Assembly: GCA_027365315.1 (NCBI GenBank)
Contig: DAHXNQ010000091.1
Span: 1-56,692, forward strand
Origin: Rhabdochlamydiaceae bacterium
GTDB lineage: Bacteria; Chlamydiota; Chlamydiia; Chlamydiales; Rhabdochlamydiaceae
Direction of reading: 5' to 3'
DNA: 56,692 nt
Shown here one piece after another: positions 27,109-32,018 of this stretch. A program made the translations under genes and the position numbers. Numbering within the stretch: position 1 is the first letter of the stretch; each line of letters starts with the position of its first letter. The notes under the pieces were generated by a model. It saw only the letters and a list, made by a program, of their open reading frames with translations, was not told where the DNA came from and did no database searches.

Positions 27109-27172
27109 ATAGATTGTTTTTTCGTTTCGCCTGGTGAATCCATCCAGCAAACCACACGGGTGACGGGTTGAG

Positions 27173-27208
27173 GTGGGCGCCAGGGAGCGCCTCACTTGAT
27201 TTTTTTTG
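27173..27208 (+). terminator. Rho-independent terminator after ftsW
   Basis: GTGGGCGC-CAGGGA-GCGCC(T)CAC stem-loop followed by TTGATTTTTTTT. Confidence 0.6.
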
Positions 27209-27253
27209 TAATATTGAGGTAGATTCTTCTTTCTATCCTTCAGAAGGAAGGAA

Positions 27254-28279
27254 ATGGACATCTCAAGGCTTCTTAATCCTGTAGCTTCCTCGCCTCTTTC
27301 TTGGCAGGCGATTCCGCGCACTTCTTTTGGTAACTCCAGCACGACCCTCCTTTCCCGAGGCTCTTTAGTCTCTTGCGCTTCACTTGAAGCGATCGATTGC
27401 GTGCGCGCTAAATGCATTGCTCATCGAACAACATTTGACAAATTGTTAGGAGGATATGAGGAGGAGCGGCGGCTCTATCTAGAGGTGGTCTGGTGGCTGG
27501 ATCAGCTGCTTGCTGATGGTCCTGAACATGATTGCTCCAGCCTTCTCGATGAGCTATACGATGATGAGAGTAGACTGAACCGCTTTCTTAGTAACTGCGA
27601 TCGGTTAGGAGAGGGAGGTCTATCTTTATACTCTCCGACGGTACCTAAAGAACTGTTCACAAGCGATCTCGCCACCACTCAAGCTGAGAGGCGTGCTCAA
27701 TTTCAAAAGTCGATAGATCTGGTATCGAAAGAACTGAATAAAATCCGCTCAATTGGTCGGATAGATGATCTATTAGATTCCATGAAAGAGTTGGAATCGT
27801 TGACTCCATCCAGCGAGACCGATCAATGCTGGTATCAGCTAGAGCATCAGATGGCAGCATTGAGTAAGCAGGTAGACAAGTTCTATCGGGCTCATGAGCT
27901 CGGATCCTGGGATAGGAGGGTGATCGCTTCAATGAGAGAAACTAGTGAGGTCTCCTATCATTGGGTGCAGCGTCACAAAGAGAGGCTAGATCGCTGGAAG
28001 CAGCTGAGAAATATACTCATCGGTGTGAAAGAGGCTGCCTTCAAGGTTGGTTGTGATCGAGTCATGCTGCGAAGAGATCCTCTGGTGAAGGGGCTGCTGA
28101 ACGGGCTCTGTGTAGACCGCATTTTAACGCAGGATGAAATAGTTAATTATTTTCTTTGTTGGGATGAAGGCATGAGGAAAGAGCTGCCCCTAACTTGGGA
28201 GGCAGAGGTGGGCCGATTCTTCGGCCATCCGAATCTACTAACCGCTCAAATGTGCAAAGAAATTACTTATAATGCATAA
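27254..28279 (+). CDS. Hypothetical protein (orphan)
   Basis: 341-aa ORF with GGAAGGAA upstream. It has no TM segment or recognisable motif. GC is lower than in the flanking dcw genes. Confidence 0.5.
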   Translation: MDISRLLNPVASSPLSWQAIPRTSFGNSSTTLLSRGSLVSCASLEAIDCVRAKCIAHRTTFDKLLGGYEEERRLYLEVVWWLDQLLADGPEHDCSSLLDELYDDESRLNRFLSNCDRLGEGGLSLYSPTVPKELFTSDLATTQAERRAQFQKSIDLVSKELNKIRSIGRIDDLLDSMKELESLTPSSETDQCWYQLEHQMAALSKQVDKFYRAHELGSWDRRVIASMRETSEVSYHWVQRHKERLDRWKQLRNILIGVKEAAFKVGCDRVMLRRDPLVKGLLNGLCVDRILTQDEIVNYFLCWDEGMRKELPLTWEAEVGRFFGHPNLLTAQMCKEITYNA

Positions 28280-28285
28280 GATAAA

Positions 28286-30240: not shown

Positions 30241-30324
30241 TATCGCCATCGTATAAATTAAAAAATTCAACATACTATATAAGTTCTTTATCTTTTGTTG
30301 GTGCTAGGCTATACTGCTATACTC

Positions 30325-30476
30325 CTGGCCATGTCTAGCGCCATACTACCTTTATCAGGCGGAGCCTCTATGGCTTCGCGTCCTTCGTCTACTCCGCTGC
30401 ACTGGCTTGCCAGGGCGGCAGCGAAGATCTATTTTGTGGCGCACGCTGCGCTAGCGCTGCTGCTATCCTTTGTCAC
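30325..30476 (+). repeat. Near-identical 152-nt 5' segment shared by the tandem paralogs (copy 2)
   Basis: See copy 1 (28366..28517). Confidence 0.85.
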
Positions 30477-31932
30477 GAAAGGTGAGGGCTGGAAGGCGGC
30501 CAAGGAGCTCTGGAAAGAGGGCGGGGATTCCTCGGTGGACGCCCCTACCTGGATCAAGCTTGCCCACCGGATCTGGAGCGCGTCGCCCACGCCAGGGCAG
30601 GGGACAGCTGCGCCATCCAGCACTCCTGGGAGCGACCCTAGCAGGTTGTCCTCGAAAGATTCCAAGATCGAACCGCCCTCCTATGGACAATCTGGCATCT
30701 ACGCCATCTGGCCATGGGGGAGAGGGGATCAGAAACTCTCTTACTCTCTTAACTCTATGCAAGAGGCGGAAGAGCTCTGTAGCTATGCCGAGAAGTTAGA
30801 ATCGTGCGGGCTCTCTCGGCAAGAGATTGGCCAGATTCACGACAAGGATGAGTTGAAGAAATTTGGCGCAAACGAAGTTTTTGTGAAGCTTTTCCTCGAT
30901 CACCATCTCTTGTGGAGTGATCTGAAGCGGAGCTCTATTTTCTCCCCCGATTCCAAGAAGGCGCTCGAGTTAACCACCGATCAGGTGCGCTTGCTGCTTC
31001 AGAAGAAAGTCTCCTTTGACACGGTGGAGAAGTTGCTGAAGTTTCCATTTGGAATTGTCTATCTGCCCCAGCTACAGAAGGACAGATTTGATGACGCACT
31101 TTTGGCCAGTCCCGAGACACTACAACTTCTTATCGATACTAATCCTCTCGGCAAGTACGAGGACAACTACGAAGAGATAAAGAACGAACTAAAGAAGAGA
31201 CTAGAGGACAGGAGTGTCCCCCTACCACAAGATGGGCGCGAAATCAATCGCATCGGCATCGGGTACGAGGGGTACGAGATCTGGCCCTGGGGAACAGCGG
31301 AAGGGAAGAAGCTGCTGCGGTCATCGGGATCGGGATCGCTGAAGAGAGCCGATCAGCTCTGCACCTATGCGCGCGAGCTCGAAGCCATAGGAGTGCCGCG
31401 AAATACGATCTGTGATCTGACAGAGTCGCAGTTAGAGAGCTTTAGCCGCCATGCGAAGAAGCTTGACGCCCTGATGAAGTTGGGTCTGCCTTTTGAAGAT
31501 AAATCCTCGGCGGATGCCAGGTTAAGCTCTCTGATCAGACTATCGGAAGAGCAGCTGCGGCTACTAGGCGAGACCTGTCTCACGGAGGTGCAGGCCTTGG
31601 TAGGGGGGCTTGGCCGGGAAGGGTTTTTCCGGTTGGCTAGGCTGTCACAGGATGGACTGGTATGGGGCGCGAAGAATCTAGCTCGACTGCAAGCCCTCAA
31701 AGGAGAGCCTGGACGTTTCAGCAATGCCGATCTGTATGGTCTCTCGCCTCCTCAGTTCGAGTGTCTCGAGTCCCGCGCAGCAGAGGTGAGGAAGATGTTG
31801 GGAGAGACCACTCTCTCATGGGTGAGGTACACTCTACTTTCTTCAGACCCGTCTGTGCAGGAAGCTATGGCCGCTAAGAAAGGTATCACGCCCGATGGCT
31901 TAAAGATTCTCGATTGGGTGATCTGGGGTTAG
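30331..31932 (+). CDS. 'IWPWG'-repeat protein, paralog 2 (orphan family)
   Basis: It has the same N-terminal 50 aa as paralog 1 and two Y.IWPWG modules near nt 30706 and 31279. The track's TTG start at 30295 is less likely than the shared ATG at 30331. Confidence 0.6.
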   Translation: MSSAILPLSGGASMASRPSSTPLHWLARAAAKIYFVAHAALALLLSFVTKGEGWKAAKELWKEGGDSSVDAPTWIKLAHRIWSASPTPGQGTAAPSSTPGSDPSRLSSKDSKIEPPSYGQSGIYAIWPWGRGDQKLSYSLNSMQEAEELCSYAEKLESCGLSRQEIGQIHDKDELKKFGANEVFVKLFLDHHLLWSDLKRSSIFSPDSKKALELTTDQVRLLLQKKVSFDTVEKLLKFPFGIVYLPQLQKDRFDDALLASPETLQLLIDTNPLGKYEDNYEEIKNELKKRLEDRSVPLPQDGREINRIGIGYEGYEIWPWGTAEGKKLLRSSGSGSLKRADQLCTYARELEAIGVPRNTICDLTESQLESFSRHAKKLDALMKLGLPFEDKSSADARLSSLIRLSEEQLRLLGETCLTEVQALVGGLGREGFFRLARLSQDGLVWGAKNLARLQALKGEPGRFSNADLYGLSPPQFECLESRAAEVRKMLGETTLSWVRYTLLSSDPSVQEAMAAKKGITPDGLKILDWVIWG

Positions 31933-32018
31933 ATGCCCGAGCCATACTCTTTCTCACATCATTTTAGCAGCTAACTTGACATGTTTCTTCCGCTTAAGGA
32001 AGCTGGCCTTGGTGAATT

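Follow-up and report, generated by a model that had tools for sequence, protein, structure and literature searches.

A lineage-specific three-gene island between ftsW and murG in the cell-wall operon of a chlamydia-like bacterium

Gene overlap, such as that between ftsW and murG, permits translational coupling. The bitopic proteins FtsN, TonB and TolA have a short N-terminal part and a single transmembrane helix, from which Pro/Ala-rich linkers lead to globular modules at the C-terminus. Among the lineage-specific orphans of chlamydiae, many are substrates of type III secretion. The accessory genome of environmental chlamydiae is dynamic, and genes present in one or a few of their genomes have been read as niche- or host-specific (Koestlbacher et al. 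2021, PMC8242063). We analyzed a 56,692-nucleotide (nt) contig from an uncultured Rhabdochlamydiaceae bacterium (DAHXNQ010000091.1, assembly GCA_027365315.1), referred to in full as the window, in which an island of three open reading frames (ORF1-3) lies between ftsW and murG of the cell-wall operon. The island fits the accessory-gene class of that study, but it sits inside a core essential operon and not in a variable region. On balance, we read it as lineage-specific accessory cargo, with an exported, envelope-anchored pair (ORF2 and ORF3) and a soluble helical protein (ORF1).

The ftsW/murG junction in the window and in related chlamydiae

The cell-wall genes and the island occupy the following positions (aa, amino acids).

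21310-22770, + strand: murF
22767-23822, + strand: mraY
23825-25114, + strand: murD
25223-25999, + strand: gene for a LysM protein with two LysM domains, NlpD-like
25996-27108, + strand: ftsW, SEDS family (Pfam FTSW_RODA_SPOVE, E 1.2e-72), upstream border of the island
27254-28279, + strand: ORF1, 341 aa, predicted all-helical, no hydrophobic segment, Ser/Thr/Pro-rich N-terminus
28411-30240, + strand: ORF2, 609 aa from the ATG at 28411; in-frame alternative starts at 28360 (longest frame) and 28372
30370-31932, + strand: ORF3, 520 aa from the ATG at 30370; the longest frame starts at 30295
32019-33110, + strand: murG, GTG start, Pfam Glyco_transf_28 N- and C-terminal domains, downstream border of the island
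33098-34453, + strand: murC
34440-35339, + strand: ftsQ-like gene

The interval between ftsW and murG measures 4,910 nt and holds three long + strand ORFs (341, 609-626 and 520-545 aa); for ORF2, the gene calls that accompany the public contigs use the ATG at 28411. An initial annotation of the window had placed three ORFs between the end of ftsW at 27108 and the start of murG at 32019, and its coordinates, stop/start overlaps and 2-nt gap for the cluster all agreed with our ORF and coordinate check. We consider the ORFs to be real genes because their frames are long, Shine-Dalgarno-like sites precede them, ORF2 and ORF3 are paralogous, and the ratio of nonsynonymous to synonymous substitution (dN/dS) between these two is ~0.45. 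The Shine-Dalgarno-like sites are GAAGGAAGGAA before ORF1 and GGCGGAG 7 nt before the ATG of both ORF2 and ORF3. By our own arithmetic, the chance of an open 341-codon frame such as ORF1 at 48% GC is ~1e-8. Both border genes are intact: ftsW and murG are full length compared with six relatives, and the murG N-terminus aligns with theirs.

These six relatives were obtained by exact protein look-up. They share GroEL or TP-methylase, the order murF-mraY-murD-LysM-ftsW-murG-murC-ftsQ-like, and KH-STAS-miaA, with neither ftsA nor ftsZ, and ftsW overlaps murG by 4-28 nt in every one of them. A metagenome scan with the MurG alignment added 80 loci, and clustering yielded 79 lineages, 71 of them informative. 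The junction was found in the following states.

64/71 lineages: ftsW and murG contiguous or overlapping, median estimated spacer -17 nt
4/71 lineages: short spacer of 79-383 nt
2/71 lineages: gene-carrying insertion of 2.5 and 3.3 kb
1/71 lineages: no ftsW within 7 kb upstream of murG

Because ftsW and murG are contiguous in 64 lineages, including the closest MurG relatives (47-48% identity), the island of the window is derived; the ancestral ftsW-murG overlap has been lost here. Contiguity in the clade had been proposed in the initial annotation and is borne out by these counts, as is the view that the island is lineage-specific, interrupting an otherwise tight and conserved operon with cargo that the relatives lack. 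Separation of the two genes is neither ancestral nor common, but it is not unique to the window either: two other lineages carry insertions and one more has a break at the same point.

The 3.3-kb insertion, found on contig Ga0070731_10005972 (L052) and identical to that on Ga0209579_10003807 (L063), carries three ORFs, for a DUF3298 lipoprotein, a product of 120 aa and a Schlafen-AlbA_2/HATPase_c_4 protein. The 2.5-kb insertion, on Ga0364914_10036 (L086), encodes two orphan membrane proteins of 168 and 458 aa (4631-6664, + strand), in the larger of which hydrophobic segments at 30-56 and 58-78 form a bilobed domain of the kind seen in inclusion-membrane proteins. On Ga0056116_1000134 (L069), the cell-wall cluster is broken at ftsW/murG with the rest of the cluster elsewhere, and a gene for a CesT-family type III chaperone (6538-6942, + strand), flanked by an opposite-strand 780-aa orphan and a 388-aa ORF, lies directly upstream of murG. 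These inserts resemble that of the window in using the same junction and carrying two to three mostly domainless, lineage-specific genes beside intact ftsW and murG. The cargo is nevertheless unrelated, with no tblastn similarity between that of L052, L086 or L069 and ORF1-3, and the insertions of L052/L063 and L086 measure 2.5-3.3 kb against 4.9 kb in the window, the largest found at this junction.

Other junctions of the operon were also interrupted, namely murF/mraY (3/34 lineages), murD/LysM (1/51) and LysM/ftsW (1/56). One example is an opposite-strand 339-aa orphan (2432-3451, - strand) between murF and mraY on ENA ERZ25039529 contig_5025 (L011). Since many junctions occasionally accept lineage-specific genes, operon position alone says little about function, and the island of the window is one case of a low-frequency, recurrent phenomenon in environmental chlamydiae.

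The island proteins and their expression signals

As the initial annotation had noted for motifs, we recognized no known family in the three ORFs. ORF1-3 matched no Pfam or NCBIfam family at E <= 0.1 and nothing in PADLOC, had no significant match in PHROGs or, by sequence, in PDB, and were absent from plasmids, phages and viral contigs. No homolog was found in the 87 related loci (79 lineages), including by tblastn. A word-indexed search of 5.8 billion clusters returned only self-matches for ORF1 and ORF2. For the module described below, we built a profile from its four copies and ran full HMMER on 1.84 billion representatives, which stand for ~15 billion proteins; ORF2 and ORF3 were the sole matches. 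Homology to housekeeping proteins, a check suggested at the outset, was not found for any of the three, and the structural comparison available for ORF3 was likewise empty: when its AlphaFold2 (AF2) model was compared with PDB and BFVD by Foldseek, E never fell below 0.03 and template modeling (TM) scores never exceeded 0.22. Orphan status is in part due to the isolation of the lineage, as the nearest relatives of the housekeeping proteins of the window are only 47-58% identical.

Several candidate matches were rejected. Hits to DUF4351 (E 0.051), to DnaX on a Pro-rich linker (E 0.0033) and to phrog_30907, a sub-threshold PHROG of unknown function (E 0.047), were treated as noise or low complexity. 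For ORF3, the top Foldseek candidates, mTERF helical repeats (E 0.33, TM 0.15-0.22) and a viral phosphoprotein (E 0.03, TM 0.07), were both non-significant, and mTERF was also missing from the results of a profile search of PDB.

ORF2 and ORF3 are tandem paralogs (BLASTP E 2e-91) that are 46% identical overall; identity is higher across the first 279 residues (59%) than across the last 231 (33%). The initial description of three unrelated orphans therefore does not hold for this pair, in each member of which a module is also internally duplicated. The features of the pair are as follows.

28366-28505, + strand: 140-nt tract, copy 1, covering the ORF2 leader, ribosome-binding site and first 32 codons
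28732-29190, + strand: ORF2, first WPWG module
about 29191-29538, + strand: ORF2, Pro/Ala/Gln-rich linker of more than 100 residues between the modules
29539-30240, + strand: ORF2, second WPWG module
30325-30464, + strand: 140-nt tract, copy 2, at the 5' end of ORF3, with one mismatch to copy 1
30676-31140, + strand: ORF3, first WPWG module
31249-31932, + strand: ORF3, second WPWG module

The new module consists of a short beta-hairpin with an invariant Y-x-I-W-P-W-G, followed by helices. Eleven positions (Y, I, W, P, W, G, A, C, A, L and G) are invariant across the four copies, and a 36-nt core of the module is present four times at the DNA level. Because the copies inside one protein are only 22-24% identical, the internal duplication is older than the gene duplication. 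The codon comparison of ORF2 with ORF3 gave a synonymous divergence (dS) of ~1.2; a dS above 1 together with the dN/dS of ~0.45 points to purifying selection and an old duplication. The 140-nt tract differs by a single mismatch while the remainder of the two genes is saturated at synonymous sites, and recent gene conversion is therefore the probable origin of the tract.

Both proteins open with MASRPSSTPLHW and contain a single hydrophobic segment at residues 16-39 (Kyte-Doolittle), followed by Pro-rich linkers; AF2 models residues 9-35 as one long helix. A comparable single hydrophobic segment occurs at the N-terminus of two other products of the cluster, the LysM protein and the FtsQ-like protein. 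On reading the sequences, we saw a possible cleavage site after the hydrophobic region of ORF2 (V-T-A, with the cut before G), where ORF3 has V-T-K-G. Neither protein has a Cys after this region, which argues that they are not lipoproteins.

ORF1 differs in composition. Its GC content at third codon positions (GC3) is 0.48, compared with 0.59-0.74 in the housekeeping genes of the window, and resembles that of other ORFs of the window without a Pfam family (0.40-0.55); in an all-against-all BLASTP of these no-Pfam ORFs, ORF1 showed no link to the other low-GC3 orphans. The GC3 values of ORF2 and ORF3 (0.61 and 0.64) fall in the housekeeping range and are thus host-like. Residues 2-26 of ORF1 contain 36% Ser/Thr/Pro and one acidic residue, joint second among 37 proteins, and neither the sequence nor its hydropathy revealed a recognizable export signal. 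We infer that the ORF1 product is soluble and helical, with disorder in its Ser/Thr/Pro-rich N-terminus, and that it is possibly a secretion substrate.

Signals that could govern expression of the island lie in its spacers.

27171-27208, + strand: terminator-like hairpin with a core stem at 27175-27192 (extendable) and T8 at 27201-27208, ~65 nt past the ftsW stop
28280-28365, + strand: AT-rich spacer between ORF1 and ORF2, ~20% GC
30241-30324, + strand: AT-rich spacer between ORF2 and ORF3
31933-32018, + strand: 86-nt spacer before murG, with TTGACA at 31976-31981 and AAGGAAG 16 nt before the GTG

The spacers are as AT-rich as had been reported (28280-28360, 19.8% GC; 30241-30300, 23.3% GC; window, 55.7%). 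Of the terminator proposed after ftsW, the hairpin and T-run exist, but their energy is unremarkable (-15.6 kcal/mol, z = -1.2), which leaves the site suggestive; the region holds 10 terminator-like sites against 5.5 +/- 2.7 expected. The proposed TTGCAT-17-TATTAT promoter is present as letters (28286; 28309-28314), but with 8 of 12 consensus positions in a spacer of 20% GC it does not exceed chance. A sigma-70 promoter scan gave 3 sites against 2.8 expected, this one not among them, and no sigma-70-like site in any spacer passed the scan. The TTGACA at 31976 was not accepted as a promoter, as it has no usable -10 element. None of the four spacers folded more stably than its shuffles, and the island had no Rfam match, even at E <= 1.

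Neither the terminator scan nor folding placed a terminator in the 86-nt spacer between ORF3 and murG, and for this reason we consider run-through into murG: murG, murC and ftsQ could be read by run-through from the island genes or from a promoter that our scan did not recognize.

Neighboring genes and the source of the window

Downstream of the island, murC (33098-34453) is not fused to ddl. A murC-ddl fusion is known from Chlamydiaceae; among 50 related lineages, ~11 have their murC and ftsQ alignments set ~950 nt further apart, which is consistent with such a fusion. A further orphan block (35349-37810) lies between the ftsQ-like gene and the KH/STAS/miaA genes and contains a 75-aa ORF (35349-35576), a 581-aa protein (35688-37433) and a 124-aa ORF. 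The N-terminus of the 581-aa protein is signal-like, a second hydrophobic segment lies further in, near residues 186-206, and its gene has a GC3 of 0.47. In most relatives the stretch after ftsQ is variable, with 0-3 unrelated genes.

Low-GC3 ORFs (0.40-0.55), most of them without a Pfam match, also occur at 3581-4375 (+ strand), 15570-16274 (- strand), 43845-44648 (- strand) and 55526-56395 (- strand). The product of 43845-44648 begins MSISSVSPPSAASSTPTPAV and, with 56% Ser/Thr/Pro, has the most type III-signal-like N-terminus of the window. The genes at 54615-55529 and 55526-56395 (both - strand) are tandem paralogs with 30% identity over 251 aa (E 5e-39). A 1,252-aa protein (39857-43615, + strand) combines a C-terminal autotransporter beta-domain with no recognized passenger domain and may be a Pmp-like surface protein. 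A thiamine pyrophosphate (TPP) riboswitch at 11594-11711 (+ strand; 75 bits, above the gathering score) precedes and overlaps the longest-frame start of a major facilitator superfamily transporter gene (11621-12958), which is probably thiamine-related with its true start further downstream.

The relatives and operon synteny of the window are chlamydial, yet the related loci examined here have 35-51% GC compared with 55.7% in the window; a survey of 82 chlamydial metagenome-assembled genomes (MAGs) reported a range of 25.9-49.8% (PMC8242063). The sequencing run SRR7268657 derives from a sediment metagenome of Parys Mountain acid mine drainage (PMC6350386), and a chlamydia-like lineage that combines high GC with an acid environment may deserve notice on its own account. 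Among the 5.8 billion clusters, the best MurG match was 47% identical, and the named MurG matches came from Rhabdochlamydiaceae and from Chlamydia-named and Verrucomicrobia-named MAGs. A genome-collection scan with MurG gave a 34%-identical Acidimicrobiales protein as its sole match, which we judged uninformative.

Possible roles and origin of the island

In the scenario we favor, the island was inserted at the ancestral ftsW/murG overlap, on the branch of this chlamydia-like organism, which is deep-branching and high in GC. ORF2 and ORF3 would be the older resident pair, the tandem-duplicated descendants of a gene with two WPWG modules already in place, and ORF1 probably joined later; the atypical GC3 of ORF1 beside the host-like values of the pair argues that the island is composite. 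To judge from hydropathy, export is the most likely fate of ORF2 and ORF3, with their single N-terminal hydrophobic helix as a signal-anchor and with proline-rich linkers that would present the WPWG modules on the far side of the inner membrane. The LysM protein, encoded two genes upstream and before ftsW, is laid out in the same general way, as are bitopic envelope proteins in general. The island would serve organism-specific envelope or host-interaction functions and not the conserved lipid II/division pathway. The secreted-protein island proposed in the initial annotation is accordingly plausible for ORF2 and ORF3, which have an N-terminal anchor, but not for ORF1, in which no export signal was recognized.

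Several points weigh against this scenario. Export and topology of ORF2 and ORF3 are read from hydropathy alone, and the AF2 model of ORF3 has a mean confidence (predicted local distance difference test, pLDDT) of 55.5, with only residues 110-180 above 70. The model of ORF1 is unusable (pLDDT 39) and was too poor for Foldseek to be applied; its N-terminal Ser/Thr/Pro fraction of 0.36 is not distinctive, since a housekeeping ABC-F protein scores equally, and its homology search at the depth reported above used the word-indexed method only. The evidence is DNA from one sample, the source of both assemblies. The location beside murG may mark a genuine functional link even though relatives lack the genes, and the functions discussed here for all three island proteins are putative.

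The alternative that survives best, which we regard as possible though rather unlikely, is that ORF1-3 are type III secretion substrates, either effectors or inclusion-membrane-type (Inc) proteins, sent to a eukaryotic host. All three are orphans in a chlamydia-like genome. Like Inc proteins and type III effectors, they are lineage-restricted, fast-evolving and domainless with a polar, disordered N-terminus, followed in ORF2 and ORF3 by a hydrophobic helix: ORF1 has 36-40% Ser/Thr/Pro and one acidic residue in this region, ORF2 and ORF3 start with MASRPSSTP, and a dN/dS of 0.45 is typical of fast-evolving interaction proteins. The same junction, moreover, holds the bilobed-domain protein in L086 and the CesT chaperone gene upstream of murG in L069. 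However, ORF2 and ORF3 have one hydrophobic segment of ~24 aa and not the bilobed domain of 40-60 aa that defines Inc proteins, and ORF1 has none. The island contains no CesT or other chaperone gene, no Pfam Inc (e.g. IncA) or effector family was matched, and type III apparatus genes are absent from the window, within which N-terminal composition does not discriminate.

It is more doubtful that ORF2 and ORF3, perhaps with ORF1, are lineage-specific divisome or peptidoglycan factors, bitopic and periplasm-spanning in the manner of FtsN, TolA or TonB, recruited for co-expression with murG, murC and ftsQ. Such a role would suit genes that share the strand of the operon around them and are followed by no terminator ahead of murG, and the L052 island at the same junction includes a lipoprotein, that with DUF3298. 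In layout, ORF2 and ORF3 also resemble FtsN, TonB, TolA and the upstream LysM protein, with a short N-terminal part, a putative single transmembrane helix and globular modules on proline-rich linkers, and with the LysM protein they share the cell-wall operon. Unlike these proteins, they have no SPOR, LysM, TonB_C or TolA domain and no sequence or fold similarity, nor was PG_binding detected in Pfam or NCBIfam, and they are conserved in no relative. The same pathway runs without them in 71 of 71 informative relatives, a dN/dS of 0.45 is relaxed for core machinery, and other junctions take unrelated genes at similar rates. Nothing ties ORF1-3 to division, and the new division or peptidoglycan factors envisaged in the initial annotation are unlikely as a core role, as no relative has any homolog. 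A more specific form of this idea, with a slim chance of being right, is that ORF2 and ORF3 represent a new bitopic, periplasm-spanning class that modulates septal peptidoglycan or envelope integrity and is co-transcribed with murG-murC-ftsQ. If so, the division machinery of this FtsZ-less chlamydia from acid mine drainage would have gained, in the WPWG proteins, a lineage-specific component.

Very improbable, in our view, is a mobile-element remnant (prophage, plasmid integration, transposon or defense island) whose genes serve the element. The atypical GC3 of ORF1 and the AT-rich spacers would fit such an origin, and the Schlafen AlbA_2/HATPase_c_4 protein of the L052 island is of a type common in mobile and defense contexts. 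Against this, the island has no integrase, transposase/recombinase or tRNA, and its flanking direct and inverted repeats are short chance matches only. PADLOC and the plasmid, phage and viral-contig searches were empty, PHROGs returned the one sub-threshold match, and ORF2 and ORF3 have a host-like GC3 and an old duplication (dS >1).

The island sequence is identical (100%) in JGI contig 3300024473, Ga0257086_100278, which spans the whole island. In a second assembly of the one sample, Logan contigs of SRR7268657 independently span the ftsW-ORF1 and ORF3-murG junctions with 100% identity, which argues that the ftsW/murG split is not an assembly artefact; they break only within the 140-nt ORF2/ORF3 repeat, at window positions 28395 and 30417. 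A chimeric join, or an ORF2 misplaced via this repeat, is hardly credible as the source of the island: that every contig comes from one sample and that the Logan breaks fall exactly inside the repeat could at most make the position or copy number of ORF2 wrong, not the split itself.

Returning to the island as lineage-specific accessory cargo, ORF1 and the WPWG pair constitute two new protein families with no relative among ~15 billion predicted proteins (for ORF1, by word-indexed search). At present these are ordinary lineage-specific accessory genes, and a role of their products in the envelope or in division would make them of real interest. In the chlamydial cell-wall operon, even the most conserved and translationally coupled junction can accept genes that are foreign or newly arisen. 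Insertions arose there independently in a few environmental lineages, which indicates that essential operons in this phylum are built less rigidly than pathogen genomes suggest.

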